In this document: positions 720 to 14,642 of the stretch, piece by piece
Position numbering within the stretch: the stretch's first letter is position 1
Layout of the letters: each line of letters opens with the position of its first letter
IMG/VR virus record: IMGVR_UViG_3300033074_001684
Location: 1 to 24,060 of that record
DNA from: a virus
Reading direction: 5' to 3' (one strand)
Length of the DNA: 24,060 bases
Notes under the pieces: generated by a model
The model's input: only the letters and a program-made list of their open reading frames with translations
Databases searched by the model: none
Told to the model about the DNA's origin: nothing
Position numbers and translations under genes: made by a program

Positions 720-3700
720 TTAGGTGATATTCATTACGCCTGTCATATCCTGTGTTGCAGTTACCTCAATTCTACCGTCTCCGGTTTGTGTGATTTCAGT
801 TCTGCCCACAACCACACTGCCGATTCCTTCTTGCGTTTGTTGCGATGTTATCTGAACAGCCGTCAAACCAGTTTGTGCGCTTGTGCTAGTATTCTGGATT
901 GCTGCCTTTCCGTTCTGTGTTTTTGTTCCAGAGTTCTGAATTGCAGCTACACCCGTTTGAATTTGTGCAGTTTCTCCTGCCAAGCTCGATACACCAATAT
1001 TGGTTACTGTGGCTGTATTTTGAATTGCCGACACACCAGATTGTGTTTGACTAATACGATGTGTCAATTCAGAAACACCCAACATGGTTTGTATTGTGGT
1101 ATTCTGCAATCTAGTTACACCAGATCTGGTACGTGCGGACGAATTTTGCATCCGTGAAAGACCAGAAACTATTTGCAAAGAAGATCCTGTGACACGGGCA
1201 TCTCCAAACTGTTGTGCTACAGTAGTGATTCTAAGATTAGACTTTCCAAGCAAAGTTCTGGTGGTGGTCTGCTGAATTGCAGATACTCCAGACTCATATT
1301 GCCGTCTCTGGTTATTGATCCAAGTAACTCCAAGTTGTGTTTGAGCAATACGATGCGAAAATTTCGTAGTACCAGAAATAGTTTTCTGTATTTCTTCAAC
1401 CTGGATACGGGTTTTTCCTTTCAACTCACGGTTGTAAGTATCGTGAATAATGACATTTCGTTCTGCCAATAGCATTTCACGCAATGCTTTGTAAATGGAC
1501 TTCACTTCGTAATCAAACAGCGCTCGATCATAGAATAAAGCGTATGCCAAAGTTCCATTGAAATTTCCAATTGCAAAAGTTGCACCTGGAATAGCCTCTT
1601 GCATGAATTTTCCAGCCCCAAATTTTTGCTCTGAAAAATTAGATGGAAGTTGAGGTTCAAAAATGTAATCGTTTGTGCTTTTGCACATATACCATCCAGA
1701 ACTTGTATTCGCCGGAATGATCGGATAGCTCTGAAATCTAGCTACATGTGTTTCGCTATTATTGACATTGCAGTTAATAAGCCCGTTTCTAAAACGAAAC
1801 ACTGCCATGAAAAATGTATCATCTTTAAGAGTATCAGATGGAAACACAATTGTCTTTGTAAGTGTGTTTCCAGTATCACAATTTTGTACACGGAATGCTA
1901 AACCACCAGGACCATAATTAGCATCTCCTAACACGTCAATCGAAAAACCATTGTCTTGATCGGTTTGAATGCAATTGACAATCGACATGTTTTGTGAAAC
2001 ATCAGGAGTGGCCGCAACCACAATCACACTGCACTCCTGCAAATTAACTGGAATGGCATACGTATCGTGGCGAACTGGGAGAGATGGTGCCCAATTGTTT
2101 ACATATGGTGCTGTGTACAAAGGATTATTGTAAGGATTGAAATTCCAAACTCCTGCGGCTGTGCCATCAATGTGACTACTTCCGTCAAAATATAACCCTT
2201 CAGTTACCCAACTACCACCATAATTTCTTCCGTCATAATCCCTACCATCAACGTCATTTACTGGTGTCAAAATAATAGGGCTTACGTTGTACACACGTGA
2301 AGTAGATGCTCCTTCAAGAAAATCATAGCGAACTTGATTTCCTTCGTGCGGGATCGTGCCATTAACAAACTTGGCATAATACTGAGACGTATCCACAACG
2401 ATTGGACCGACAACCGATGTATAATTTGCAGATTCAAAAGATACAATAGCGTCAATATTCAGCTTAGATCTTTGGTCTGGGTTATTAACAATAGATCCAA
2501 TGATTCGATCTTTGAAGTGGACAATTTGTGTGTTGCCGTACACTTCACCGCCAACTACAGTCAGTGGAAATCCAACAAATTTCTGACGGTCCAAAGACCC
2601 GTGAACATTTCTGAAACCCAAAACTAACGGATCATTTGGAATGATTTTCAATTCCTGTGTTTTGCTCAATGTCAAACGTGCATCACATATTTTGGCATCC
2701 AACCAAAGAATGTTTCTGCGAACAAGGTTGAGGAAGTTGTTCTCTGGTTTGCTCTTAATGAGCACCGATCCAAACATCTTCATTCCGGCAGGATGAACAA
2801 GTTTTTTGACAACATCTCTATAGCGATCTACTATTTCGCCAAACCGCAAATCGTATGAGAAATCTTGCCAATAATAGCTGTCTTGAATGATCTTGTTAGA
2901 GTTTGGAAAACTGTCTGGTGTCGTTGGAACTTCACCCATACCACCAGCACGCCCAGGAGTCCACTGGCCACTCGTAGTCCCAATCAAACCCAAAACAGGC
3001 TCAAGAATAGCATTGTGGCCGTTGGCAGACGCAATCGATACTGTTGGTGTCGTAACAAATCCCAATCCAAAATTGGTACTACGTACAGACTTAATTCCAC
3101 CACGAATGTGTGTGATGGAATACTTTGTTGTGCCGTCAGGAATGTCTACAAACGGAAGATCAACTGTAGCAATCTTTGTAGTTCCGTTGTATGATACGAT
3201 GATTCTTTTCTGACCTATTCCAGTTCCACCCACCAAAGCAATTTCGTCACCAACAAAAAAATCATCCGTTGATGTTTCGCTAGAAGACAACAAAATTTGA
3301 TTAGGATTCAAAAGATCGGAATTTGTATACTGTGAGTGTACGTCAGAAAAGAAATACATCCCCGGAATACACACACCATCCTGAGTAAAATCATTGGTTG
3401 TATTAACCGTGTCGTTTGGACCGAAAAATGGTTCCAGGTAAAAGGTGGAAGGTGGAACTTGGCAGCTACCGTTATAATACGTCTGGAAGATAGATGTAAT
3501 TATAGCAGTTGCATCCGACAATCCGCCGCCGCCTGAAATAGTGATTTCTTCTCCAACCAAGTAGTCATTTCCGGGTTCGATAATATCCAAACTCTGAAGC
3601 AATTGATATGCTTGTTCGTAGAGCAATTCGTTGTATGGCTCTTCCAAATCTGTGACTGATCCAAGTTCTGTTTGTGCTGGAGGATTGACAGGGTAAACAA

Positions 3701-4559
3701 TCTTCACTTGTTCTGGCAATCCTGTAGTCGGATCAACAATAAACGTTCCTTCAATATTCGACACCGTAAGCGTCGTAACAATCCCACCGTCGATTACCTC
3801 TTGAACAACAGATTCGACTTTTGCTGTCGCCCCAGACACAACACCAATTATTTTTCGATTGAGGTAGTCAAATGTGTTATCCGTGGTGGTAATCTTCATT
3901 ACCTTTTGAACATACCATCTGGCATCGGATGCACGGAACAAGTCAACCTTTGGGTAGTAAAATTCCACTTCTTGATTGAACAGAATTCTAAACAAGAATC
4001 TGAATGAGTTTTCAGTTCCCTTTGCCCTGTAAAAGTCCTTGATGTGCTTCAGTATGTTTCGCTTATCTGCTAAGATGTTTCCTGGAATCGAATACATAAA
4101 TTCATCTCGCAGATACGAAATGAATTTGTCAATAGTATAATCGGCATCACGGTATTCCAATAGCTTCGCCGGGTGCAATGCATCCCGAATTTCCATTAAA
4201 GTGTTGGGTGGGGGAATATTTGTTACATCCCAAGATTCATACAGTGTTACCACACGAGTTTTTGGATCATAATAACGGATCTTCTTTGTGTGCCCCTTTG
4301 CTGGCCCGTTAAGACACACAATAAACATGTCTTGGTACGCATTGACAATCGTCGCATCCGCTGTATCTTTCAGCGTGATTGTAGTCGGTGATGTCGCAAG
4401 AACTTTTCCACTCCATACCTGTGCGCCATTTGTTTCAAGCCATTCGTAATAGGCTTTCACAAATGCCACAAACATCGGATAGTCTTCCTGGATGAAATCA
4501 GGAATCTGCGACGGTATAAGTTGTGAAATTGTTCTTGGTGATTTTGGAATTGTTGGCAT
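720..4559 (-). CDS. large baseplate wedge protein, gp7-like by synteny (1279 aa), with a C-terminal degenerate tandem-repeat domain
   Basis: Long ORF between the gp6 and gp8 homologs in T4 order 6-7-8. No direct motif recall for gp7, so the product rests on synteny and size. The C-terminal ~180 aa consist of ~13-aa repeats of the form SGVSAIQNTATVT. Confidence 0.5.
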   Translation of the reverse strand: MPTIPKSPRTISQLIPSQIPDFIQEDYPMFVAFVKAYYEWLETNGAQVWSGKVLATSPTTITLKDTADATIVNAYQDMFIVCLNGPAKGHTKKIRYYDPKTRVVTLYESWDVTNIPPPNTLMEIRDALHPAKLLEYRDADYTIDKFISYLRDEFMYSIPGNILADKRNILKHIKDFYRAKGTENSFRFLFRILFNQEVEFYYPKVDLFRASDARWYVQKVMKITTTDNTFDYLNRKIIGVVSGATAKVESVVQEVIDGGIVTTLTVSNIEGTFIVDPTTGLPEQVKIVYPVNPPAQTELGSVTDLEEPYNELLYEQAYQLLQSLDIIEPGNDYLVGEEITISGGGGLSDATAIITSIFQTYYNGSCQVPPSTFYLEPFFGPNDTVNTTNDFTQDGVCIPGMYFFSDVHSQYTNSDLLNPNQILLSSSETSTDDFFVGDEIALVGGTGIGQKRIIVSYNGTTKIATVDLPFVDIPDGTTKYSITHIRGGIKSVRSTNFGLGFVTTPTVSIASANGHNAILEPVLGLIGTTSGQWTPGRAGGMGEVPTTPDSFPNSNKIIQDSYYWQDFSYDLRFGEIVDRYRDVVKKLVHPAGMKMFGSVLIKSKPENNFLNLVRRNILWLDAKICDARLTLSKTQELKIIPNDPLVLGFRNVHGSLDRQKFVGFPLTVVGGEVYGNTQIVHFKDRIIGSIVNNPDQRSKLNIDAIVSFESANYTSVVGPIVVDTSQYYAKFVNGTIPHEGNQVRYDFLEGASTSRVYNVSPIILTPVNDVDGRDYDGRNYGGSWVTEGLYFDGSSHIDGTAAGVWNFNPYNNPLYTAPYVNNWAPSLPVRHDTYAIPVNLQECSVIVVAATPDVSQNMSIVNCIQTDQDNGFSIDVLGDANYGPGGLAFRVQNCDTGNTLTKTIVFPSDTLKDDTFFMAVFRFRNGLINCNVNNSETHVARFQSYPIIPANTSSGWYMCKSTNDYIFEPQLPSNFSEQKFGAGKFMQEAIPGATFAIGNFNGTLAYALFYDRALFDYEVKSIYKALREMLLAERNVIIHDTYNRELKGKTRIQVEEIQKTISGTTKFSHRIAQTQLGVTWINNQRRQYESGVSAIQQTTTRTLLGKSNLRITTVAQQFGDARVTGSSLQIVSGLSRMQNSSARTRSGVTRLQNTTIQTMLGVSELTHRISQTQSGVSAIQNTATVTNIGVSSLAGETAQIQTGVAAIQNSGTKTQNGKAAIQNTSTSAQTGLTAVQITSQQTQEGIGSVVVGRTEITQTGDGRIEVTATQDMTGVMNIT
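780..1330 (-). repeat. in-frame tandem peptide repeats (~39-42 nt period) encoding tGVsAIQnTxTxT units at the C-terminus of the gp7-like protein
   Basis: Protein repeats SGVSAIQQTTTRT / SGVTRLQNTTIQT / SGVSAIQNTATVT / TGVAAIQNSGTKT / NGKAAIQNTSTSA / TGLTAVQITSQQT are seen in the translation. The DNA is rich in cag/acc/ggt periodicity. Confidence 0.55.
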
Positions 4560-4569
4560 CCCTTACCCC

Positions 4570-6372
4570 TTATGCGTTAGCTAACACTGTCACAAAAATA
4601 TCCTCTGGCCGGATATACAAAATGTTATTACGTACTGGAATGATATCGTTCTCCGATGGACTCATTGTCACAGAAATGTTTCCGTCTGTGCCATCGAGGT
4701 AATACGGCATAAACTCCTGAAGAATTATTCTGCCTGTAGTGTAATCAACGGTTCCACAATCCCGAACAACTGCATTCGGCGTGCCGATACGGTGTTGAAC
4801 CATTTGAATAATTCCGTTACTATCATCTTGAAGTGTATAGGTGCATCCGTTTTGATACGGAACCAGCAGTTTAGGATCATGCACCGTCACAAAGCTGCTC
4901 GAAACCAAAGTTCCCGGCTTCACTGCATTATAATAGTCAAGTTGGTAATTTGCGATTAGATCAGAGGTTGGAAGTAAAACCTTCTTCATCGTAATTGTTG
5001 ACAAATTGTTTGTAATGCTCGTTTCACTGTTATCGATGGCAGACAGCAATTTGGAATATCGGAACTCCAGATCAAACTTGTCGAGATTTTCCGTCGAATA
5101 CGTTACAATAGCATCATATGCGGTTGTACGTATGTCACCTTCCGTCTTGAATGTGTTCGCCGGATTATATTTTACTGTACTGTTCACAATCAGGAAAGTA
5201 TAATCTGGGTCAAGAAATTCAGGGATAACAGAAACAACATTGCGCTTCCGAATGATGTTTTGTAGAACTAGTGCTTTAGCTTCTTCGGTAATAACATATC
5301 CCTCTACAGGCTTAATTGAAACGAAAACTTTTCCGTATTGTGGAGGAATATTTTCTTCACCACCCCAAACCGCAACCGAATCAGCATTGGTGTATTGTTG
5401 TTGCACTGTTGTAATATAATCTTTGGCTGTGACCGCTCGACCCTGTGCTTCATAATTTTTGGGCGCAGCGAACCGAATTTCTTCTGTCGTTTCCGCTTCA
5501 AGTCCACCCGCAGCAGGGACCAAAGTCGTCACACTAACCGCACGGACGGGATACCCAGCCACTGGAACATTCGGAGTAAATGACAACGCTCCGTTTGGAT
5601 TTGGACCATCGGAAATGATATAATCAACCACCACGACATTTCCGTCTGTCAATTTTTGACAAATGATACCATCACCAAATTTTACCTCGTACTTCTGGTC
5701 TTCCACTTCTTGCAAAAAGTACGCCTTTGTATCACTCTTCAATTCCAACAAATTATCCGCAAGGACATATGTGGTCAATGTTGTGTTAGATGTCGATGTC
5801 TGTACACGGACAGTAATGGCACGAGTATCGATCTTAGAACTAGGCAGAACAAACCTCTGATTTACAGCCTGAGAATTTACAGTAAACCTATACGTGTATG
5901 CCACACCTTGAATAAGAGTTACATCTGGATAGTTGAACACACCATTTTCAATAGTGGCTCCATACGCACGATCTGTAACAAAGTTGTAGACTGTTCCGTC
6001 AACGTTTGACCTAAATGGTGTATTCTTTTCAATAACTGCCGATGCTGCATTATCTGTAGGGATGATAACGATGCTAACACGAGCTTGCGCAGATGTGACC
6101 GAACGTGGGGTATAATTCAAATGCTTCGCCAAAGAAACCACAGACGATCTCATATTAGCAGAATCCAAGAACATTTCGTTAGCAATCATGTTCATGTAGA
6201 ACGCATTGTAGTGAGTATTGTACGCCAGGATATCAAGAAGCACCGAAATACTAGAACCCTCAAAGTCATAGTCTTTGAATTGTGACTGTGATCGTAAATA
6301 ATCACGTAAAGACGCTTTAAGAGTATCAAAGTCGAGGTAAGTTACGCTCAATTTGGATGTAGAAGTGCTCAT
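4570..6372 (-). CDS. gp6: baseplate wedge subunit gp6
   Basis: 600 aa. The N-terminus ...QFKDYDFEGSSISVLLDILAYNTHY...LRSSVV matches the T4 gp6 motif YDFEGS..NVL.DLLAYNT...LRSSVV. Its position between gp25 and gp7-like fits. Confidence 0.8.
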   Translation of the reverse strand: MSTSTSKLSVTYLDFDTLKASLRDYLRSQSQFKDYDFEGSSISVLLDILAYNTHYNAFYMNMIANEMFLDSANMRSSVVSLAKHLNYTPRSVTSAQARVSIVIIPTDNAASAVIEKNTPFRSNVDGTVYNFVTDRAYGATIENGVFNYPDVTLIQGVAYTYRFTVNSQAVNQRFVLPSSKIDTRAITVRVQTSTSNTTLTTYVLADNLLELKSDTKAYFLQEVEDQKYEVKFGDGIICQKLTDGNVVVVDYIISDGPNPNGALSFTPNVPVAGYPVRAVSVTTLVPAAGGLEAETTEEIRFAAPKNYEAQGRAVTAKDYITTVQQQYTNADSVAVWGGEENIPPQYGKVFVSIKPVEGYVITEEAKALVLQNIIRKRNVVSVIPEFLDPDYTFLIVNSTVKYNPANTFKTEGDIRTTAYDAIVTYSTENLDKFDLEFRYSKLLSAIDNSETSITNNLSTITMKKVLLPTSDLIANYQLDYYNAVKPGTLVSSSFVTVHDPKLLVPYQNGCTYTLQDDSNGIIQMVQHRIGTPNAVVRDCGTVDYTTGRIILQEFMPYYLDGTDGNISVTMSPSENDIIPVRNNILYIRPEDIFVTVLANA

Positions 6373-6800
6373 TATCTCAATCTCTCCAGAAAAACGGATA
6401 CCGTTTGCTGTGCCGTGATGTTTTCGATGTAAAAAGTGACAGTTACATCATATCCATTTTCTTCATAATTGGTCTTTACTGAAACATCACTTAACGTAAC
6501 TCTTGGTTCAAAATTTTGGATCACGTCCTGAATGGACCTCTTAATCGACAAAGCAGTGATGCTCGTAATGTTTTCAAACAACATCGCCATTACGCTACAA
6601 CCGATTTCTGGATGGAAAGGACGCTCATAATGTTTAGTACGAACCAAATTGACTACGGCAGATTTAACAGAATCAGAGTCATAGAGCATACCAATATCCT
6701 TCTTCACCGGATTGGGAAGGAAAAGTAAGCTGAAATCGCTATATCGATTGGAAATGTTCTGCGGCACACTTCTATTTAGTGCGGCAACTTTGGGTTTCAA
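6372..6800 (-). CDS. gp25: baseplate wedge subunit gp25 (GPW/gp25 family)
   Basis: 142 aa. RPFHPEIGCSVMAMLFENITSITALSIKRSIQDVIQNFEPRV aligns with T4 gp25 RPFDPEFGCDLSDQLFENMTPLTADTVERNIESAVRNYEPRI. Confidence 0.9.
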   Translation of the reverse strand: MKPKVAALNRSVPQNISNRYSDFSLLFLPNPVKKDIGMLYDSDSVKSAVVNLVRTKHYERPFHPEIGCSVMAMLFENITSITALSIKRSIQDVIQNFEPRVTLSDVSVKTNYEENGYDVTVTFYIENITAQQTVSVFLERLR

Positions 6801-6823
6801 AGAGATGGAGAGATATACAACTA

Positions 6824-7108
6824 TCAGTTTGCGAAGACGTTAGGAGAACCTTCGGCATTAAAATCTAAGCAAGAAATTGAATCACCAATTCTCGCTACGG
6901 GCTTGTTGTTTACAAAAACATTGGGTGATCCGGTAGCCTGATTTCCATCATGACAGGCAGGGCCGCAGCAATGTACAATCCAATGGTCACCAACTCTGTG
7001 GATTCCTTTGTTGTTGGCAAATACATTTGTGCTGGCGGAATCATTCGGTCTGGCGGGCCAGCATCCGTGTCCGGTGCTTTTGTCGGCAAGTCTAACAATA
7101 GATGGCAT
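6824..7108 (-). CDS. gp5.4: PAAR-repeat spike tip protein (gp5.4-like)
   Basis: 94 aa with repeated SPNVF(A/V)NNK...RIGD motifs and conserved Cys/His, typical of a PAAR domain. It lies immediately downstream of the gp5 homolog, as in T4. Confidence 0.8.
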   Translation of the reverse strand: MPSIVRLADKSTGHGCWPARPNDSASTNVFANNKGIHRVGDHWIVHCCGPACHDGNQATGSPNVFVNNKPVARIGDSISCLDFNAEGSPNVFAN

Positions 7109-7117
7109 CAGTGATAT

Positions 7118-7369
7118 TTACAAAATTACCTTTATCAAAATGCCAACTATCGTTAACGGAAGCACAAATTTCATGAACTTGATATGGTATTTTGGTTCGT
7201 CTACTATCCATATCAGCCACATCAAAATTCCTTGGAACGGCCATGTGCCTAGCTTAACCATAAGCATAATCAAGCTGCCCAATACGATTGCACACAAAAG
7301 GCGAAACCATTTAGATACGATTAGCAAAATAAAGCCCATGCAAATTGCAACTACAGCAAAATCGCTCAT
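7118..7369 (-). CDS. small hydrophobic membrane protein (2-3 predicted TM helices)
   Basis: 83-aa ORF tightly packed between gp5 (ends 7387) and PAAR (starts 7108). Composition is strongly hydrophobic (LLIVSKWFRLLCAIVLGSLIMLMV..). No homology recognised. Confidence 0.45.
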   Translation of the reverse strand: MSDFAVVAICMGFILLIVSKWFRLLCAIVLGSLIMLMVKLGTWPFQGILMWLIWIVDEPKYHIKFMKFVLPLTIVGILIKVIL

Positions 7370-7386
7370 GATTTCATTTTAACACA

Positions 7387-8784
7387 TCAACAATCTTCTT
7401 GCTGAAATTCCTCTGGGGTTGGATCAAACTTTTCTTCCTTTTCAGGGTCAGTAAACGATTCACTACGATTTTCCGTCATTCCCAAAGCTGTTGGAAATTC
7501 AGGAATTACTGGTGATTGTGGAGCAGTTGGTCCGCTCGCTGAACCCTTTCCAGAATTCCAGTGAACTGCCTGGGCATCGCCAGAAAGCGTTCCACCAGCC
7601 ACCATCACAAAATTTCCGCCAGCACTCTGCTTGATCTGCCCACCAGCAAGGTCGTACATTGCGCCGCCTGAATGACGATCACTCGAACCGCCAGCGTGCA
7701 TAGATTCGTTTCCGCCAACTTCCCGCTGGTCGTATCCCTTGATCTTCGTCACCCGGTTGCCTTCAATGTCAGTGTAGTAATTTCCTTTCACCTTTTCGGT
7801 GACATTGCCTTGCACGTGCATATTCAAGTCGCCATCAACCTGGAGATTTGCATTTGAACGGCAATAGATATTGCACTCACCATCAACCGTAACATTCATC
7901 GAATTTTGAAAGTGACTGTATGAATTTTCCATCGTCACTTCAAATTTCTTACCTACAATTTTGATCGTGAGATTACCTTCTGGGTCAATTTCCACACGGG
8001 TGAGTGTGCGATGCGCCATGTGAATGCGTTCTGCGCCAGGAGTATCATCGATTTCTACAACATGGCCGGATTCCGATTCGTACACGTGATTGTACGGATA
8101 TTGCGCATCATAGGCAGATTCCGGCTCTACCCATTTTCTTGTTGGTAAAGGATGCACAAAGGCAATAGGAACAGCACCAAACTCACCCTTTCTGCCTACA
8201 TCTCTTTGCCGTTTTTGAACACCAATGATTGTGTCATCAACATTTTCTGCTCGTGCCAAACGATTAACATCGGATTCCCCAACAATACAACCCCAAGGAT
8301 GCGTTTGTCTTGGATACAAAGAAGCAGTTGATTCTTCAACAAGCTCTGCACCAGAACCATCATTTGGGTAGAACCGACTTTTGATTTTACGAGGTGCAGA
8401 ATCAACTTCGTGGAATGGCTTTCCTGGATCGTAAAACCCGATAGAAGGCTGTGGAGATTCTTCTGGAATTCCTGCCCAAGTTCCCATTATGATTGGCTCT
8501 TGTGCGCTTTGACCGTCTTTAAAGAAACCGAACACCCACGTTCCTTCCGCTGGTCCAGTTGGGGAATGCCCCAATCCATTCATAGCTTGATTCCAGGTAA
8601 TTGGCTGATACACGTAAGCCCAATGCAATTGACAGGTGGGAATCATTTGCTTGTCTTCGGTGTGTGCGCCCAGGACACGTACACGACAGCGTCCTAGTTT
8701 TTGTGGGTCACGGCGATCTTCAACAACTCCAACCCACCAGTAGAAGCTGTCCTTGCCCATGAAGTTTGGTTCTGATTTTGCCAT
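7387..8784 (-). CDS. gp5: baseplate hub / cell-puncturing spike protein gp5-like (OB-fold N-domain plus C-terminal beta-helix; no recognisable lysozyme domain)
   Basis: 465 aa. The N-terminus FYWWVGVVEDRRDPQKLGRCRVRVLGAHT matches the gp5 OB domain (W/FVGVVED..DP..LGRVRVRV.G.H). The C-terminus has VxGxxxxx beta-helical repeats (NVTVDGECNIY..NLQVDGDLNMHVQGNVTEKVKGNYYTDIEGN..). A PAAR gene follows. Confidence 0.8.
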   Translation of the reverse strand: MAKSEPNFMGKDSFYWWVGVVEDRRDPQKLGRCRVRVLGAHTEDKQMIPTCQLHWAYVYQPITWNQAMNGLGHSPTGPAEGTWVFGFFKDGQSAQEPIIMGTWAGIPEESPQPSIGFYDPGKPFHEVDSAPRKIKSRFYPNDGSGAELVEESTASLYPRQTHPWGCIVGESDVNRLARAENVDDTIIGVQKRQRDVGRKGEFGAVPIAFVHPLPTRKWVEPESAYDAQYPYNHVYESESGHVVEIDDTPGAERIHMAHRTLTRVEIDPEGNLTIKIVGKKFEVTMENSYSHFQNSMNVTVDGECNIYCRSNANLQVDGDLNMHVQGNVTEKVKGNYYTDIEGNRVTKIKGYDQREVGGNESMHAGGSSDRHSGGAMYDLAGGQIKQSAGGNFVMVAGGTLSGDAQAVHWNSGKGSASGPTAPQSPVIPEFPTALGMTENRSESFTDPEKEEKFDPTPEEFQQEDC

Positions 8785-8800
8785 CGGATTTATATAGGTC

Positions 8801-8830
8801 TTGACAAAATGAACCGCTTTGTGCTATGAT
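8801..8830 (+). promoter_or_regulatory. sigma70-type promoter TTGACA-N18-TGcTATGAT
   Basis: TTGACA at 8801-8806, extended -10 TGcTATGAT at 8822-8830. An ATG sits 6 nt after the -10 (8837). Same architecture as four other promoters in the window. Confidence 0.6.
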
Positions 8831-8868
8831 TCCATCATGTGTGATTATACGATTATACGTATTCTGCA

Positions 8869-9222
8869 ATGATTACGAAAAACGAAGACGGAACGGCAGA
8901 TATTTGTCTTACGGATATTCCTCCTGAAGCCGTATCAGCTTCCCTCCGACAGAAGCCGACTTTGAAAAGATTGGACGTGAACTACGAGAATATTTCAACA
9001 CAAATGAAACACGTTTTCATTTTCCTTATTCGGGTGTATCAAATCGTCTTCTGGCCGATCCGTCAGCTTGGCTTATGCAAATTTGAACCACACTGCTCTG
9101 CCTATGGCATTCAGGCCATTCAACAACATGGCGCTTTTCGTGGTTCCTGGCTCACGATCAAACGCATTGCCCGATGTAATCCCTTCACATGCGGTGGACA
9201 CGATCCGGTCCCTTTGCGGTAA
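8869..9222 (+). CDS. yidD: YidD-family membrane protein insertion efficiency factor (DUF37); start uncertain, alternative ATG at 9004
   Basis: FLIRVYQIVFWPIRQLGLCKFEPHCSAYGIQAIQQHGAFRGSWLTIKRIARCNPFTCGGHDPVP matches the YidD consensus ..Y...ISP....CRF.PTCS.YA..A....G...G..L...RL.RC.P...GG.DPVP. The 8869 start gives a 45-aa N-extension; the 9004 start gives a typical 72-aa YidD. Confidence 0.75.
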   Translation: MITKNEDGTADICLTDIPPEAVSASLRQKPTLKRLDVNYENISTQMKHVFIFLIRVYQIVFWPIRQLGLCKFEPHCSAYGIQAIQQHGAFRGSWLTIKRIARCNPFTCGGHDPVPLR

Positions 9223-9241
9223 CGTTACACAATCTGCTATA

Positions 9242-9409
9242 ATGGCAGAAGCATGGACTGAGTGGCACGAACAAGAAGCCGCAAAAATGCGGGAGCGGTG
9301 CAGAATCCGCTTTGGAAAAGAATGGGTTGGCGCACGTTTGTCCCTATACGGTCAACATGGTTCCGATCCACCCAGAGTTTCGTTTACAAATTGGACAGAA
9401 AATGTATGA
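9242..9409 (+). CDS. hypothetical 55-aa protein
   Basis: Fills the gap between yidD and the lipoprotein gene. Its TGA stop overlaps the lipoprotein ATG as ATGA (9406-9409). No SD. Confidence 0.35.
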   Translation: MAEAWTEWHEQEAAKMRERCRIRFGKEWVGARLSLYGQHGSDPPRVSFTNWTENV

Positions 9410-9831
9410 TAAATAAATTCGTAATCATTGCGTTCGCTGTAATTTCCTTTGCCGGATGCAGCACCAGAAAATCAATCATACCCAAAATGAGTACGCCAGT
9501 ACCAAAAGCGGGTACAGCAACTCCGGTGGGTGTAGTCGTTCGTATGAGCGACGGAACCGAACAAGTTTATCCACTTGGCATATGGATCATGTTCCAAAAC
9601 GGCCAGCTTCGTGGTGCTATGCCCACACAGTATGTAAACCAACCAGCAACTCTTCAAACGAATGGAACCTGGACGTACACCCGGCCCGGAAGAAACGTGC
9701 AAGTTTGGAGAAATGGCGTTCTTCAGAAACTCAATGAAGACTACACCTTAAACCAAGCTGCCGCTACCATTACGCCTATTGGAGAGCCGTGGAATTCTAT
9801 TGATACTGTTCAGGTAGCATACCTTTACTAA
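9406..9831 (+). CDS. putative lipoprotein (141 aa)
   Basis: Internal ATG of ORF 9262..9831. The N-terminus MINKFVIIAFAVISFAGCSTRK is a signal peptide with lipobox FAGC. The upstream part of the ORF looks non-coding. Confidence 0.65.
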   Translation: MINKFVIIAFAVISFAGCSTRKSIIPKMSTPVPKAGTATPVGVVVRMSDGTEQVYPLGIWIMFQNGQLRGAMPTQYVNQPATLQTNGTWTYTRPGRNVQVWRNGVLQKLNEDYTLNQAAATITPIGEPWNSIDTVQVAYLY

Positions 9832-9847
9832 TTTTTGGATGTACCTA

Positions 9848-9876
9848 TTGACTTTTTGTGCTGAATTTGCTATTCT
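9848..9876 (+). promoter_or_regulatory. sigma70-type promoter TTGACT-N17-TGcTATTCT; -10 ends 6 nt before the ATG at 9883
   Basis: CCTATTGACTTTTT...TGCTATTCTcaaaccATG. Near-identical copy at 10785-10826. Confidence 0.65.
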
Positions 9877-9882
9877 CAAACC

Positions 9883-10059
9883 ATGACACCTTTTAACAGC
9901 ATGATCGAAGCACGTGACTATTTCTGGATGGAGTTTTGCCGCCAGGGTGGTGGAAAACCTGTTGCGAAGTCTTGTCTTGTGCGTTTCAAGGGGGGCGTTC
10001 GCCAAGTGACGTTCATGCCCGGAATGGTTGCGTATGGCAGCTTTGTCGGAGTCGATTAA
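9883..10059 (+). CDS. hypothetical 58-aa protein (leaderless start)
   Basis: ATG 6 nt downstream of the -10 hexamer. The stop overlaps the ATG of a possible 32-aa ORF (10059..10157, MARKSDQSKDPIDRAVNQMLRALSKLFRNKHY) as TAATG. Confidence 0.4.
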   Translation: MTPFNSMIEARDYFWMEFCRQGGGKPVAKSCLVRFKGGVRQVTFMPGMVAYGSFVGVD

Positions 10060-10183
10060 TGGCACGAAAATCAGATCAATCGAAAGACCCGATTGATCGG
10101 GCAGTGAATCAAATGCTTCGTGCTCTTTCCAAACTCTTTCGCAACAAACATTACTAACGGAACAATCAAACCGTAAGGATATC

Positions 10184-10366
10184 ATGTTCAAACGAATTTT
10201 TACCGCATTCCGTGAACTATACGATTTCGATCTGATGTTCACTCCTATCGGCACTAGTCGTGTGTACTATTGCAAAGGTCCAAGTACTGGAATTGGCTAC
10301 ACATATGTCCGTGTGTTTGGAATCATGGTTATGAAATTCCAGTCCACCAAGCCGTGGTTAACATGA
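10184..10366 (+). CDS. hypothetical 60-aa protein
   Basis: AAGGA SD 6 nt upstream of the ATG. The stop overlaps the next ATG as ATGA. Confidence 0.5.
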   Translation: MFKRIFTAFRELYDFDLMFTPIGTSRVYYCKGPSTGIGYTYVRVFGIMVMKFQSTKPWLT

Positions 10367-10608
10367 TTTACACATACGACACAATCTGGACGCCGGAACT
10401 ACGAAACGGAAATTTTCACATCCCATTGGTTCCGGTTCATTTAAAAGTAGGTACACACGCATCATCTGTGTGGTTAGTTCGCAAAGCTGATTTAGGAAAT
10501 CTTCAGGTGGGCGGATTGCTCAAAATCTTCAGCGAACGCAATGCTCACCCGGTTCACATTGAAATCACAGAGCTTCGTGGCAATCTTTGGTTCGCCACAA
10601 GAATTTGA
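10363..10608 (+). CDS. hypothetical 81-aa protein
   Basis: Internal ATG of ORF 10270..10608, coupled via ATGA to the upstream gene. Confidence 0.5.
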   Translation: MIYTYDTIWTPELRNGNFHIPLVPVHLKVGTHASSVWLVRKADLGNLQVGGLLKIFSERNAHPVHIEITELRGNLWFATRI

Positions 10609-10614
10609 GGAAAC

Positions 10615-10779
10615 ATGGAATCCCCAATCGTAACCGACAAACACGTGTGGCTGAAAATCTACAACACAGTCATGGCCGAAATTCTGCGCCACGGAAAGCT
10701 CTCTGTCATGGAAGCAGCCTTCAGAGCACAAACCGCCGCACACGAAGCTGTCAAACACTTCCGTAACGAAACTTTTTAG
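10615..10779 (+). CDS. hypothetical 54-aa helical protein
   Basis: GAGGA SD 5 nt upstream of the ATG. Below the 60-aa track cutoff. Confidence 0.5.
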   Translation: MESPIVTDKHVWLKIYNTVMAEILRHGKLSVMEAAFRAQTAAHEAVKHFRNETF

Positions 10780-10788
10780 ATACACCTA

Positions 10789-10817
10789 TTGACTTTTTCA
10801 TCCTGGTGTGCTATTGT
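10789..10817 (+). promoter_or_regulatory. sigma70-type promoter TTGACT-N17-TGcTATTGT; -10 ends 6 nt before the ATG at 10824
   Basis: CCTATTGACTTTTT...TGCTATTGTaaaaccATG, a paralog of the 9848 promoter. Confidence 0.65.
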
Positions 10818-10823
10818 AAAACC

Positions 10824-11438
10824 ATGATCGCACCGAACAACAACATGACGCCGAAGCAGATCGATTGGGTTGCCCGGATGAGGGCCAATCTGGAATCCCT
10901 GCACTGCCAGTGGTACGGTTGGGATTATGAAGGTCACCCGATGGGTGGACGTGGCAATGCAAACATGAATTCTGAAGTGTTTGCGGAGACGGATCGCAAA
11001 ATCCGTGAGGCAGCGTTCCGGTTGGGCATCACGGTGGAGAACGCCGGGGATCTGGCCGAACTGAACGAAGGATGGGATGGCGAAATGAACGGCGATCTGG
11101 TTGTCCTGGGCAATGCTCTGGATGCCATCGTTCGCAAGGCAAACGCAAAGAACGAAGAAAAAAACCAAGCGGCTCCAGTATCAGAATCCGCAATGGACGG
11201 CACGTCGGGATTACTAACAATGATGACACCACTTCCAATTCCCGCAAATCCCGGTTTCTACAGCGAATTGCTGGCAATTTCCAGCGGCACCCTGTCGGCG
11301 CTTTCCGGTATGTCGTCCTACGCCGAACTGGACGAACTTCACACGGCACTTCTGGTCTTCTACCTTCACAACCAGGACAAACCCTACGAAACCTGGATGG
11401 ACGTTTGGAACGCTTTCCAAACGGCATCGGTGAACTGA
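10824..11438 (+). CDS. hypothetical 204-aa protein (GC-rich island)
   Basis: Longest ORF in its region. Leaderless ATG after the promoter. Many overlapping ORFs in other frames reflect high GC content. Confidence 0.6.
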   Translation: MIAPNNNMTPKQIDWVARMRANLESLHCQWYGWDYEGHPMGGRGNANMNSEVFAETDRKIREAAFRLGITVENAGDLAELNEGWDGEMNGDLVVLGNALDAIVRKANAKNEEKNQAAPVSESAMDGTSGLLTMMTPLPIPANPGFYSELLAISSGTLSALSGMSSYAELDELHTALLVFYLHNQDKPYETWMDVWNAFQTASVN

Positions 11439-11759
11439 ATGCGGGTCTTTCCTCTTTGGGGTTTCAGCAACGGGCAATACGACATTTTCACCCGTGGAGA
11501 AACCCAAGAACAGGCATGGGAACACGTCAAAGACGGCCCGTGGGAACGAGGGCATACTGTGTTTCCTCTGAATACCCTTCCCATTACTGCTGCCAAGTTA
11601 TACGATCAAAACCATGCTCCTGGCTGGCTTTACCGTCCCATGTATTGGCTCCAGAAAAAAGAAGAACGAGAACGATTCGCCAATGCACCAAAAACCCTTG
11701 ACGAAGCCATCGCCGGGGTTGTTGCGCATTTGCGGAAAAAACACGGAATCGGAGTATGA
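11439..11759 (+). CDS. hypothetical 106-aa protein
   Basis: ATG immediately follows the stop of the upstream gene (TGAATG). Confidence 0.55.
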   Translation: MRVFPLWGFSNGQYDIFTRGETQEQAWEHVKDGPWERGHTVFPLNTLPITAAKLYDQNHAPGWLYRPMYWLQKKEERERFANAPKTLDEAIAGVVAHLRKKHGIGV

Positions 11760-11870
11760 TTGTTTTCAACACTTTCAGTGAAGGGCTGCTGTGGGCGGAA
11801 AAGAACGCTAACGGAACCTGCATTTTCAAATTCAAAGGGATGATTTTCCCTCTTGGGGATACATTGTAAT

Positions 11871-12104
11871 ATGATCGCAACACTCCATCGTGAATGGGAA
11901 CTTCACACCTGGAAAGAAGACGGCACAACTGGCAACGACGTGTATGTTGGACCGGGGACCGTCGAACTCGAACGAATCCCTAATCCATTGGGGTACAAAG
12001 GATTTTGGCTCATCATCAAGGGAACCAATGTTGGCATGGCAGAAGGCGCATGGCGGCAATGGGAAGACTTTACTGATGAGTGGCAAATCCAGATCACCGA
12101 ATAA
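11871..12104 (+). CDS. hypothetical 77-aa protein
   Basis: First ATG in ORF 11853..12104 (the track start is TTG). GGGGA 10 nt upstream. Confidence 0.45.
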   Translation: MIATLHREWELHTWKEDGTTGNDVYVGPGTVELERIPNPLGYKGFWLIIKGTNVGMAEGAWRQWEDFTDEWQIQITE

Positions 12105-12119
12105 TTTTCTCGAATCCTA

Positions 12120-12149
12120 TTGACAATTCGGTTCGTACTGTGGTAGTGT
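12120..12149 (+). promoter_or_regulatory. sigma70-type promoter TTGACA-N18-TGgTAGTGT; -10 ends 6 nt before the ATG at 12156
   Basis: CCTATTGACA shares the CCTATTGAC core with the other promoters. The hexamer-to-ATG spacing of 6 nt is conserved. Confidence 0.5.
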
Positions 12150-12155
12150 ATAAAC

Positions 12156-12608
12156 ATGACGAACGAAATCGAGCTTCTGGCAAAGGTAAGCGCTGAAGAG
12201 GTTTATGGCCCGGACATGGACGCTATGCTCCGTGAAATGGCCGATTCCGATTGGCACGTCGAATTTCCTTCCGATATCGTGGTCGTCGGACACGATGGCG
12301 AATACGCCGACATGAGCAATCCGACTGGTGCTCTCTACGGAGAACGCTTCTATATCCGTGCCGAAGACGAAGCGGGTCATCGCCGGGTTTGGGGTGGATT
12401 GTACGAGACGGCAGAACTAGCCGAAGCTGCTTACCTGATGTTTGCCCCTCCGGTTGAGTTTTGGGAAGAAACCAGCCCGTGCTACGGCTCCGAAGCCTGG
12501 AGCAGCGAGAACGAAGCCGAACTCCGGGAATGGGAAGCCGACATTGCCGAAGGAAACAGTGTGTACAGCGACGACTTTGTGGTTGGAATCGGCCCGGAGA
12601 TGGTCTGA
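12156..12608 (+). CDS. highly acidic 150-aa protein (possible DNA-mimic or anti-defence type; product unknown)
   Basis: ORF with ~30% D+E (EDEAGHRR..EWEADIAEGNSVYSDDF). Leaderless ATG after the promoter. Confidence 0.6.
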   Translation: MTNEIELLAKVSAEEVYGPDMDAMLREMADSDWHVEFPSDIVVVGHDGEYADMSNPTGALYGERFYIRAEDEAGHRRVWGGLYETAELAEAAYLMFAPPVEFWEETSPCYGSEAWSSENEAELREWEADIAEGNSVYSDDFVVGIGPEMV

Positions 12609-12732
12609 CGGCATCACCTATAAAATCACCGAAGCCGAACTGAAAAATGCAAAAATGGCAGGAACAGGCGCACCGCTTCACTTCGACAAACCTTCGACAA
12701 ACCTGTTGTCATCGAACCTTAGGATGGAAATT

Positions 12733-13005
12733 ATGAAGCTGTCAACCGCCGAACAAGAAGCTCTTGAACTGCTGAAACGGCATGGTGGCTGCATTTCATC
12801 TGGCACGGTTTCGGATCGCACAGAACCAGACGTATTCGGAAACATAGTTCCTGGAATCAAAATTTTCAAATCTCTCGAAAAAAAGGGTCTGATCTTCTTC
12901 ACAGAAGAAGAACCAATCGTCCTGGAAGACGGGACAAAAATCGACCTCACACCGCTGATTTATTTGGAGGAAGAAAATGCAGACAACCACACAACGAATC
13001 GCTGA
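12733..13005 (+). CDS. hypothetical 90-aa protein; start uncertain (alternatives 12724, 12655)
   Basis: AGGA 8 nt upstream of ATG 12733. The upstream part of ORF 12442..13005 overlaps the previous gene out of frame. Confidence 0.45.
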   Translation: MKLSTAEQEALELLKRHGGCISSGTVSDRTEPDVFGNIVPGIKIFKSLEKKGLIFFTEEEPIVLEDGTKIDLTPLIYLEEENADNHTTNR

Positions 13006-13207
13006 AAGATCTCACATGCGTGGGTGGGGAGCCTACCAGAAGGAAAAGGACTTCGCCTATGACACCATCTGTGCGCTTGCGGAACTGTACAAACCCATGA
13101 ACTGGCTCTGCATCATGGACTTCATCCGCATCGCTGTGGCTGATGGAATTCTTTCCGAAGCGGAAGCCAACCTCACCGCTTCTTACGCCCTGTCAGTTTG
13201 CATATGA
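12977..13207 (+). CDS. hypothetical 76-aa protein
   Basis: Strong SD GGAGGAAG 4 nt upstream of the ATG. The stop overlaps the next ATG as ATGA. Confidence 0.6.
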   Translation: MQTTTQRIAERSHMRGWGAYQKEKDFAYDTICALAELYKPMNWLCIMDFIRIAVADGILSEAEANLTASYALSVCI

Positions 13208-13419
13208 TCCAGTACGTCACAACCATCGAAAACCTCTTCATCAGCGTCATGGTCGATGGTCGCTATCGGGCGCAGATTCGCCGCTTGTCATCTTTCGGTG
13301 GAAACACTCACAAATGGTATTTGTTTGTCAACGGCCACGAAATTCAGTACGTTAACAGAAAAAAGGTGGCGGGAAATCTCAGACACGTCAAACAGTGTGT
13401 GGAAAATTATTTCAAGTGA
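13204..13419 (+). CDS. hypothetical 71-aa protein
   Basis: ATG at 13204 (the track start 13198 is TTG). ATGA-coupled to the upstream gene. Confidence 0.5.
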   Translation: MIQYVTTIENLFISVMVDGRYRAQIRRLSSFGGNTHKWYLFVNGHEIQYVNRKKVAGNLRHVKQCVENYFK

Positions 13420-13496
13420 GTGGCGGCACCGGGTCTAGGGTTTCCCTTGCGATACGGCGCTCTTATCTCCCCCTTTCGTGACCACTCTAAACAGCG

Positions 13497-13534
13497 GCAG
13501 GGATTCCCGATTCTCCACCCTGCACTTTTCGTTT
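13497..13534 (+). terminator. candidate intrinsic terminator closing the plus-strand cluster
   Basis: GCAGGG (13497-13502) pairs with CCCTGC (13518-13523) across a 15-nt loop, followed by ACTTTTCGTTT. Confidence 0.35.
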
Positions 13535-13659
13535 GGGAGATTTTACCTCCACCAGCCAGCCCATTTGTCGAGGACTTCGGCATTCAGCTACGAACGTGCT
13601 AATTTGTTTATCGTATCTGCCCGGTTTCCCGGACTTCTTTACACCACGCTGTCTAAAAT

Positions 13660-13733
13660 TGGAGCGGGCACCGGGACTCGAACCCGGCTCTCAGGACTGG
13701 CAGTCCTGGGCACAACCGCTATACCATACCCGC
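13660..13733 (-). tRNA. tRNA-Gly(GCC)
   Basis: Reverse complement GCGGGTA...CAGGA CTGCCAG TCCTG...CCGGG TTCGAGT CCCGG TGCCCGC T CCA. The cloverleaf has a 7-bp acceptor stem and anticodon GCC. CCA is encoded. Confidence 0.85.
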
Positions 13734-13755
13734 AAAGGAAATGTGTGTAAGAAAT

Positions 13756-13829
13756 TGGAGCGGGACACGGGACTCGAACCCGTATCTCTAGCTTGGAAGG
13801 CTAGGGCACAGCCCTTATACCAGCCCCGC
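13756..13829 (-). tRNA. tRNA-Gly(UCC)
   Basis: Reverse complement GCGGGGC...CTAGC CTTCCAA GCTAG...ACGGG TTCGAGT CCCGT GTCCCGC T CCA. Anticodon TCC. Confidence 0.85.
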
Positions 13830-13850
13830 TTGAACTTGTATTTATACGAA

Positions 13851-14171
13851 CTACCGAACGATCTGAGTACCGATCAGTGCCGCATTCCACAAAACGATAA
13901 GAGTGAACAACCGATTCACAAAGTTCCATTTCTTATCCGTATTTGCAGAGGGTCGAACCACAAAGAAGCCCAAAATAACCGAAACGGTCAAGAGCTTCCC
14001 AAAAATCAACCCGGCCACCGGACCCATCGAGGGAAAGAATTGACTAATAGCAGGATTCGCTTCCGAAAGGCCAACCGAAAATCCGATTAGCGTCGAAACA
14101 ACGTCTGCCACCTGGAGTGCTGCAAATCTCCAGTGGTTCCTGTTCATCTTCGCAATGGAAAGGCTAACCAT
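13851..14171 (-). CDS. membrane protein (~106 aa, multiple TM helices)
   Basis: Internal ATG (14171) of ORF 13851..14255, placed 6 nt after a -10 hexamer of a TTGACA-N17-TGcTACCTT promoter. The protein is hydrophobic (VVSTLIGFSVGL..GLIFGKLLTVSVILGFFVV). Confidence 0.5.
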   Translation of the reverse strand: MVSLSIAKMNRNHWRFAALQVADVVSTLIGFSVGLSEANPAISQFFPSMGPVAGLIFGKLLTVSVILGFFVVRPSANTDKKWNFVNRLFTLIVLWNAALIGTQIVR

Positions 14172-14177
14172 GACTAC

Positions 14178-14206
14178 AAGGTAGCACATCCACCACGATT
14201 TGTCAA
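14178..14206 (-). promoter_or_regulatory. sigma70-type promoter (minus strand) TTGACA-N17-TGcTACCTT, hexamer 6 nt before the ATG
   Basis: Minus-strand ATATTGACAAATCGTGGTGGATGTGCTACCTTGTAGTCATG has the same geometry as the plus-strand promoters. Confidence 0.45.
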
Positions 14207-14399: not shown

Positions 14400-14642
14400 T
14401 TACTCTTCCAGTATACCACTGTTAACAGGTCTTGTCAAACCGTGGATTTTGCTCCGCACTTCCCGGGGAACGTCCATCACAACTTCTTTCCCGTTCATCA
14501 TAGCCCACAACTCAGGAGAGCACGCCAGGACGCCATTACAGCCTGCTAGAGCCTCGTCTTCGGCCTCTGCCATACGACGGAGCCATTCCTCATCCCGATT
14601 GCTTAAAACGCCTCTATTCGCTTCCACACGCACCACCTTCAT
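14400..14642 (-). CDS. hypothetical 80-aa protein (internal start of ORF 14400..14795)
   Basis: Chosen to avoid the 180-nt out-of-frame overlap with ORF 14614..15087. The alternatives are equally possible. Confidence 0.3.
   Translation of the reverse strand: MKVVRVEANRGVLSNRDEEWLRRMAEAEDEALAGCNGVLACSPELWAMMNGKEVVMDVPREVRSKIHGLTRPVNSGILEE

Follow-up and report, generated by a model that had tools for sequence, protein, structure and literature searches.

The DNA analysed here (the window) is a stretch of 24,060 nucleotides (nt) from an uncultured virus, positions 1 to 24,060 of IMG/VR record IMGVR_UViG_3300033074_001684, and makes up one complete JGI metagenome contig. A T4-type baseplate module occupies positions 720-8784 of its minus strand, with Pfam matches for a gp7-like wedge protein, gp6, gp25, and gp5; nine genes for transfer RNAs (tRNAs) detected by ARAGORN are also all located on the minus strand. 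The stretch from 8.8 to 14.2 kb, flanked by the late baseplate operon and the tRNA region, consists of small open reading frames (ORFs) that have no match in Pfam or PHROGs except for a YidD homologue and a DUF5658 membrane protein, a content that is typical of the early, plastic region of T4-type genomes. This stretch contains five sigma70-type promoters, named P1 to P5 below, whose -10 hexamers all end exactly 6 nt before an ATG. The same layout recurs in diverged relatives in front of unrelated genes, and it likely gives rise to leaderless messenger RNAs (mRNAs) that begin with the start codon.

All five promoters consist of TTGACA or TTGACT, a spacer of 17 or 18 nt, TANNNT, 6 nt, and ATG, and they have the elements expected of sigma70-type promoters with an extended -10, namely a TTGACA-like -35, a spacer of 17 +/- 1 nt, TGn, and TANNNT. 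The extension (TGc or TGg) is present at all five and makes up the last three bases of the spacer. P1 (8801-8830, plus strand) matches 11 of 12 consensus positions and comprises TTGACA (8801-8806), an 18-nt spacer ending in TGc, and TATGAT to 8830, followed by tccatc and ATG 8837. On the same strand, P2 (9848-9876) is composed of TTGACT (9848-9853), N17 with TGc, and TATTCT to 9876, followed by caaacc and ATG 9883; P3 (10789-10817) of TTGACT (10789-10794), N17 with TGc, and TATTGT to 10817, followed by aaaacc and ATG 10824; and P4 (12120-12149) of TTGACA (12120-12125), N18 with TGg, and TAGTGT to 12149, followed by ataaac and ATG 12156. P5 (14178-14206) is on the minus strand, where TTGACA (14206-14201), N17 with TGc, and TACCTT to 14178 precede gtagtc and ATG 14171. 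An earlier note on this DNA had located the promoters at 8801, 9848, 10789, and 12120 (plus) and 14178-14206 (minus), with an ATG 6 nt after each -10; all coordinates were confirmed, and sequence reading together with a pattern scan found the distance to be exact at P1 to P5. The elements of its motif TTGAC(A/T)-N17/18-TGcTAnnnT are present as well, but the formula needs correction because the spacer of 17 or 18 nt already includes TGn. Its further statement that P2 and P3 are near-identical over ~45 nt had to be abandoned, as only 33 of 45 positions (73%) are identical; identity is concentrated in the -35 with its flank, TGCTATT, and AAACCATG, whereas the spacers differ. The pattern TTGACW-N16-19-TANNNT-N6-ATG matches five times in the window compared with 0.03 matches expected from dinucleotide-preserving shuffles, and none of 100 shuffles reached five matches.

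Genomes of relatives (designated by locus handles such as L001) further illustrate how stereotyped this arrangement is. Promoters of this type were also found near gp5 homologues at eleven IMG/VR loci, where an ATG, occasionally a GTG, follows the -10 by 6-8 nt; 20 non-redundant instances have exactly 6 nt. A scan across IMG/VR that used the promoter elements only and demanded no ATG (AGATRCATCTATTGACW-N13-15-TGNTANNNT) retrieved 16 non-redundant sites from 8 contigs. Every one of them has an ATG at exactly 6 nt, and each of these ATGs opens an ORF of 48-194 amino acids (aa). In a pooled set of 80 non-redundant TTGACN-N13-15-TGN-TANNNT instances from the window and its relatives, ATG was found at offset 6 in 49 cases and at every other offset from 0 to 12 in at most 4; GTG occurred at offset 6 only 3 times compared with the 49 ATG. 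Chance was rejected as an explanation on the basis of the window shuffles, the 16 scan sites, and the offset peak. An earlier pool of 74 instances contained 44 promoters whose ATG or GTG at offset 6 (+6) opens an ORF of at least 40 aa. Here, the base before the start codon is a pyrimidine without exception (C in 31, T in 13 of the 44), and position -4 is A in 30 of the 44. The ORFs behind the +6 ATGs encode 46 distinct proteins of at least 30 unrelated families; since so many unrelated families share the layout, recent duplication of one gene with its promoter was also rejected. One candidate at L069 that seemed to precede a tRNA was dropped because ARAGORN finds no tRNA there.

Comparison of orthologous promoters points in the same direction. 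They differ in the -10 and the discriminator (for example TATTGT/aaaacc, TATCCT/taattc, and TATTCT/taactc). The promoters orthologous to P2 in L001 and L112 likewise lie 6 nt before an ATG, and TGGTAGTGTATAAACATG at P4 is identical in L063. L112 is part of a 399,930-bp ENA contig from a closer relative, which contains three more such promoters, the P2 orthologue among them. Taken together, these comparisons indicate that the 6-nt geometry is conserved and selected. An alternative is that the promoter blocks (45-60 bp) are recombination or shuffling cassettes, similar to the promoter-early stem-loop (PeSL) elements of some T4-type phages, which are kept as homology for the swapping of ORFans and pass on the distance to the ATG by inheritance. 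The region is indeed an ORFan-rich plastic zone, the gene content between gp5 and the early genes varies among relatives, and the promoter context of yidD has changed three times (leaderless in L001 and L006, internal in L062, and with a relic promoter in the window). PeSLs also join a sigma70-like promoter and an A/T-rich upstream region with a repeat upstream of the -35 or in the spacer (PMC2839356). However, spacer, -10, and discriminator vary freely while the 6-nt distance and the -1 pyrimidine are fixed, which argues for selection on the geometry rather than recent copying, and the Shine-Dalgarno site and GC-rich stem-loop of PeSLs are both missing at P1 to P5. Cassette shuffling, which would in any case be compatible with leaderless expression, therefore seems an unlikely explanation of the fixed geometry.

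The genes behind P2 to P5 begin at the +6 ATG, which is their true N-terminus: orthologues on other contigs align from residues 1-8 and have the same 6-nt geometry. This does not extend to P1, whose ORF has only 11 codons. The first gene behind P2 (9883-10059, plus) encodes a 58-aa ORFan without a Pfam or PHROG match, and its L001 orthologue aligns over residues 1-55 of both proteins. P3 is followed by the gene of a 204-aa ORFan (10824-11438, plus). Its orthologues in L062, L063, L008, and L075 can be aligned starting at residues 1-8, and their own start codons also lie at +6. The gene call of the Joint Genome Institute (JGI) for this gene (P0121) has 165 instead of 204 aa and is 39 residues short, although conservation with the orthologues starts at residue 2-8, upstream of the called start. 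The short call would arise because the caller leans on Shine-Dalgarno sites and here meets a leaderless start. No IMG/VR relatives of the P3 protein were found through peptide patterns, an approach that did retrieve gp5 relatives. P4 precedes the gene of a 150-aa ORFan (12156-12608, plus) with an L006 orthologue aligned from residue 1. P5 precedes the gene of the 106-aa DUF5658 membrane protein (13851-14171, minus; Pfam), for which L063 has an orthologue that aligns over residues 1-96 and shares the +6 position. All four genes are predicted to be leaderless.

Each promoter heads a run of 2-6 small ORFs. Internal genes of these operons have AAGGA, GAGGA, GGAG, AGGA, or GGAGGA upstream or overlap with the preceding stop codon (ATGA or TAATG), whereas the first genes behind P1 to P5 lack a Shine-Dalgarno site and have only the -10 and the 6-nt discriminator before the ATG. 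The sites at internal genes suggest that translation in the host uses Shine-Dalgarno pairing and that only the first genes go without it.

In sigma70-type promoters the -10 hexamer spans positions -12 to -7, and a 6-nt discriminator behind it thus places +1 on the A of the ATG. A pyrimidine at -1 followed by a purine at +1 is the preferred start-site context of bacterial RNA polymerase, and the -1 pyrimidine has no obvious role in translation. Together with the preference for ATG and the sharp single offset peak, it makes mRNAs beginning with 5'-AUG the best explanation of the pattern. The idea of a sigma70-type family placed for a start at the A of the ATG, already put forward in the earlier note, is thus strongly supported by the scan (16/16), the offset distribution (49/80), the pyrimidine (44/44), and the alignments from residue 1. 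We consider leaderless expression from the +6-ATG promoters likely, with the transcription start deduced from the geometry. The promoters might also be active without producing truly leaderless mRNAs, if transcription started elsewhere (1-3 nt upstream or at upstream promoters) or if the A/U-rich -10 served as an unstructured landing site for ribosomes. Gaps of 7-9 nt in some relatives, the tandem promoters without intervening terminators, and the gp5 motif 5-8 nt from its ATG (see below) would be in line with such a scenario. It is nevertheless improbable, because there is one sharp peak at offset 6 (49 versus at most 4), ATG prevails over GTG at this offset by 49 to 3, and the -1 pyrimidine is invariant, which suits start-site selection but would not be needed by a landing pad.

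For the mechanism of leaderless expression that we propose, the identity of the polymerase and sigma factor, the precise position of the start, the assignment to early genes, and the way in which translation initiates are all inferred from sequence. The cassettes would be strong early promoters read by the housekeeping (sigma70-type) RNA polymerase of the host. This enzyme would recognise a -35 (TTGACW), a spacer of 17-18 nt, and an extended -10 (TGn-TANNNT), which are accompanied by an A/T-rich upstream region and, in most relatives, by the palindrome AGATRCATCT. The A of the ATG would be the first transcribed base, and the leading gene of every small early ORFan operon would be translated from a leaderless 5'-AUG mRNA by initiation on the terminal AUG without Shine-Dalgarno pairing. 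The later genes of each operon would use Shine-Dalgarno sites or overlapping stop and start codons.

Several observations weigh against this mechanism. Some 30-40% of the promoter matches of equal quality in the clade have a leader, and the +6 ATG design is thus not universal. The window itself contains two leadered promoters of the same type on the minus strand, both as strong as P1 to P5. One (14410-14438; TTGACA-N17-TGg-TATACT) has no ATG at +6 and precedes small ORFs, one of which has a plausible AAGGG-N6-TTG start. The other (18284-18311; TTGACA-N16-TGc-TATACT) has a leader of ~32 nt with AAGGA before ATG 18245 of a major-vault-protein-like (MVP-like) gene, and a leader likewise follows its orthologues in L006 and L112. 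In addition, a terminator scan found no terminator-like hairpin beside P1 to P5. Without terminators between the tandem operons, read-through transcripts probably exist, and on these the first-gene ATGs would be internal and without a Shine-Dalgarno site; this would fit a dependence of the first genes on their own start site. Moreover, the ATG after P1 opens only 11 codons.

The earlier note was right that an ATG follows P1 at 6 nt, but this ATG opens no normal gene. The 11-codon ORF (MCDYTIIRILQ*; 8837-8872, plus) starts 6 nt after the P1 -10, and its TGA (8870-8872) overlaps ATG 8869 (ATGA) of a 117-aa ORF (8869-9222, plus). It has no homologue in the relatives, and a tandem direct repeat, GATTATAC-GATTATAC, is located within it (8843-8859, plus). 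The YidD domain covers residues 47-114 of the 117-aa ORF (Pfam), with a conserved YidD core from ATG 9004. This phage YidD (9004-9222, plus), a membrane-protein insertion efficiency factor, is kept in relatives, where the promoter context of its gene varies. In L001, L004, and L006, yidD has a GTG start 7 nt after the -10 of a promoter of the same family, and in L062 it is located within an operon and overlaps the gene before it. The window sequence just upstream of the YidD core (8962-8993) aligns with the leaderless yidD promoter of relatives but has decayed to TTGAAA-N18-GAGAAT, and it is a relic of that promoter. P1 lies ~170 nt further upstream. The combination of a relic yidD promoter and a newer P1 shows that promoters turn over in this region. 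The 11-codon ORF may be a leaderless upstream ORF that is transcribed from P1 and coupled through ATGA to the 117-aa ORF; alternatively, it may be the remnant of a lost gene. Further downstream, a perfect extended -10 (TGcTATAAT) is present at 9235-9244 (plus), its final AT and the next G forming ATG 9242 of a 55-aa ORF, and a weak TTGCGG lies 18 nt upstream of it. This -10 may represent a further promoter inside the P1 operon.

The palindrome AGAT(G/A)CATCT occurs in most members of the promoter family in the relatives and is often flanked by T and A, which extends it to 12 bp. In nine related contigs, every occurrence of the exact palindrome is at a promoter. Two registers can be distinguished. 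In the first, which applies to most of the predicted leaderless promoters, the palindrome ends 1 nt before TTGAC and spans -46 to -37 with its centre at -41.5. In the second, it lies inside the spacer (TTGACR-n1-4-AGATRCATCT-n1-4-TGn), as in relatives at the promoters of yidD and of the DUF5658 gene. If one mismatch is allowed, it accompanies 33 of the 44 promoters that have ATG or GTG at +6, compared with 4 of the 30 remaining promoters of that pool. The window has only degenerate copies: GGATGTACCT (9837-9846, plus) is located 1 nt upstream of the P2 -35, the palindrome-like AGATACACCT (10778-10787, plus) at about -46 to -37 of P3, and TGATGCATCT (18351-18342, minus) 29 nt upstream of the -35 of the MVP-like gene promoter. 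P1, P4, and P5 have either no copy or a degenerate one.

A loop-less 10-bp palindrome that is found at promoters only and in two registers behaves like a protein-binding site, and TAGATGCATCTA is the candidate protein target. Tentatively, (T)AGAT(G/A)CATCT(A) might be the operator of a dimeric phage or host regulator that controls a regulon of leaderless early genes in the clade. The upstream position could then permit activation or be tolerated, and the spacer position could cause repression. No recognisable DNA-binding domain (Pfam, PHROGs) was found in the early ORFs, and hence no candidate binder emerged among them. If the hypothesis is true, palindrome and +1 ATG would be parts of a ~60-bp unit of promoter, operator, and start codon that could be shuffled before any ORF. 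A different role for the palindrome would be participation in promoter recognition by a phage-encoded sigma factor or a phage-modified polymerase, a scenario that could draw on the conservation beyond the hexamers (cTA before TTGAC, and the palindrome). Early promoters of T4 likewise have an extended consensus. Against this scenario, the -35, spacer, TGn, and TANNNT of the family are textbook elements of a housekeeping sigma factor. Furthermore, the palindrome is absent or degenerate at three of the window promoters and can shift into the spacer, which marks it as a separable module. Recognition by a phage factor is thus highly improbable, and we favour the housekeeping polymerase of the host.

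Another motif lies directly beside P1 on the opposite strand. According to the earlier note, gp5 shares the geometry of the family, and TATATA-aatccg-ATG is indeed present (8782-8796, minus), but this site has neither a -35 nor TGn. A conserved cTATATA is found 5-8 nt upstream of the gp5 ATG in the window, L001, L006, L008, and L062, in each case without a recognisable -35. The window motif TATATAAATC agrees in 7 of 8 bases with TATAAATA, the consensus of T4 late promoters. Lacking a -35, the gp5 motif is better regarded as belonging to a separate, late-type class than to the sigma70-like family. Several TATAAAT(A/G) motifs are found in L006 at 5-8 nt before the ATGs of longer ORFs, and gp5-type promoters may also give rise to very short or absent leaders. 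In the window, a perfect TATAAATA is located at 13846-13839 (minus), 9 nt upstream of the 5' end of tRNA-Gly(UCC).

Downstream of the P5 gene, on the same strand, are two tRNA-Gly genes and a conserved structured RNA. This non-coding element (window 13450-13650, minus) lies just downstream of the two tRNA genes and has counterparts in L006 (7490-7600), L008 (5852-5967), L010 (6931-7040), and L063 (~2951-3010). Its DNA identity to the relatives (72-82%) exceeds that of neighbouring genes. It contains the invariant blocks AGAWACGATAAACAAATTAGCACG, GGTAAAATCTC, and TGGAGAATCGGGA as well as hairpins with compensatory changes, and 6 of the 31 base pairs in the RNAalifold prediction are changed on both sides. 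A search of Rfam with this element gave no match, and it probably represents a novel phage small RNA that would be co-transcribed with the leaderless DUF5658 gene and the tRNAs. Rfam confirms eight of the nine window tRNAs. The ninth, tRNA-Leu(UAA) (21647-21727, minus), is called by ARAGORN but not by the Rfam tRNA model at the gathering threshold.

Sequence comparisons place the window in a distant, uncultured T4-like myovirus. For gp6, the nearest cultured phages, which are Pelagibacter phage HTVC008M, the Methylophilales Melnitz phages, Caulobacter phage Cr30, and T4-like cyanophages, are only ~35-40% identical, and no cultured phage gave a near-identity DNA match to the whole window. Relatives of gp5 in IMG/VR contigs share 53-77% identity. 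The MVP-like protein (15726-18245, minus; 839 aa) has a major-vault-protein shoulder and repeat domains (Pfam) and ~6000 metagenome homologues; unlike its neighbours, its gene has a leadered promoter and a Shine-Dalgarno site in the window and in relatives. Several homologues of this protein occur on contigs of 375-570 kb, and the clade probably comprises very large, apparently jumbo, T4-like phages. Clade contigs include IMGVR_UViG_3300050821_002957 (405,631 bp), IMGVR_UViG_3300048762_000248 (118,567 bp), and the aforementioned ENA contig (ERZ25039501 contig_20886, 399,930 bp), which also encodes a protein with a peptide chain release factor (RF-1) domain near the MVP-like gene (L112 12917-13294). 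The source metagenomes are from peat and soil. A host search in which GTDB genomes were scanned with gp5 and with the promoter motif returned zero matches. The named YidD homologues are mostly from Bacteroidota (~60% identity). This similarity was rejected as evidence on the host, because YidD is short and widely conserved and because the TTGACA/TGnTANNNT promoters and GGAGG-type Shine-Dalgarno sites of the phage do not match the expression signals of Bacteroidota.

Leaderless expression of this kind has precedents in bacteria and in a small number of other phages but, in the literature searched, none in T4-like phages; full-text searches returned no report of leaderless transcripts in this group. 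The new elements here are the promoter-associated palindrome and a stereotyped, predicted leaderless early cassette in a clade of large, uncultured T4-like phages. If the proposed reading is correct, it extends systematic leaderless expression to T4-like, apparently jumbo, phages, whereas the classic T4 early genes are Shine-Dalgarno-led. It also implies that automatic gene calls misplace early-gene starts in these genomes, and gene calls in the clade probably shorten many first-in-operon genes. As a simple sequence rule, the layout allows early transcription units and the true N-termini of proteins to be located throughout a large clade of uncultured phages. It further predicts that the host translates 5'-AUG mRNAs efficiently. 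The cassettes are short and near-consensus and can be tested directly in vitro, and the palindrome, being specific to promoters, suggests that the early programme has a regulator still to be discovered.

Known systems resemble the family in individual traits. The cI mRNA of phage lambda, transcribed from PRM, is the classic leaderless mRNA and arises from a sigma70 promoter that starts at the A of the AUG; it belongs, however, to a single regulatory gene of a temperate phage, whereas the window represents a genome-wide family of early promoters. The early promoters of T4 are very strong, read by the host sigma70, conserved beyond the hexamers, and A/T-rich upstream. Their transcripts carry leaders with Shine-Dalgarno sites and their -35 consensus is GTTTAC-like, and they thus differ from the family described here in being leadered and in having another -35. 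The leaderless promoters of Thermus phage phiYS40 are reportedly mainly middle and late and lack a -35. The family in the window, in contrast to those of phiYS40 and Lalka27a, has a full consensus -35 and precedes early-type ORFan operons. According to a preprint on these two Thermus phages, most of their transcripts are leaderless and originate from TGx-extended -10 promoters (bioRxiv 10.64898/2026.04.20.719267). They are not T4-like, and their host is a thermophile whose phylum has many leaderless genes; their transcripts were mapped, whereas those considered here are predicted from sequence.

Among cellular genes, a -10 adjoining the ORF is a common mode of expression in Deinococcus-Thermus (PMC12340547), and leaderless genes of many bacterial phyla, among them Acidobacteria, Actinobacteria, and Chloroflexi, are marked by a TA-like signal ~10 bp before the start codon (PMC3160421). 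As predicted for the window, TANNNT a few bp upstream of these genes is a determinant of both promoter activity and translation start, and a -35 at 17 bp raises expression (PMC12340547; PMC3160421). Their -35 is usually weak or missing, however, whereas the phage cassette is stereotyped, near-consensus, and associated with the palindrome. In phage phiKZ, by contrast, no leaderless transcripts are seen (PMC8244752).

The closest parallel among T4-type phages is provided by the PeSL cassettes of phages RB49 and phi1, for which a role in modular shuffling has been proposed (PMC2839356). Like the window family, PeSLs are sigma70-like early promoters that occur in repeated copies, are A/T-rich upstream, and stand ahead of ORFans in hyperplastic T4-type regions, and both have an inverted repeat upstream of the -35 or between -35 and -10 (PMC2839356). 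Only in PeSLs is the ATG preceded by a Shine-Dalgarno site, and only they contain a stable GC-rich stem-loop that serves as a terminator (PMC2839356). In the window family there is no Shine-Dalgarno site, the ATG is predicted to be at +1, and the repeat is a loop-less palindrome of 10-12 bp. P1 to P5 thus share with PeSLs the sigma70-like promoter repeated in a plastic region but have neither the GC-rich stem-loop nor the Shine-Dalgarno site. Since these two defining features are missing, the family would not be a member of the PeSLs but rather their leaderless counterpart.

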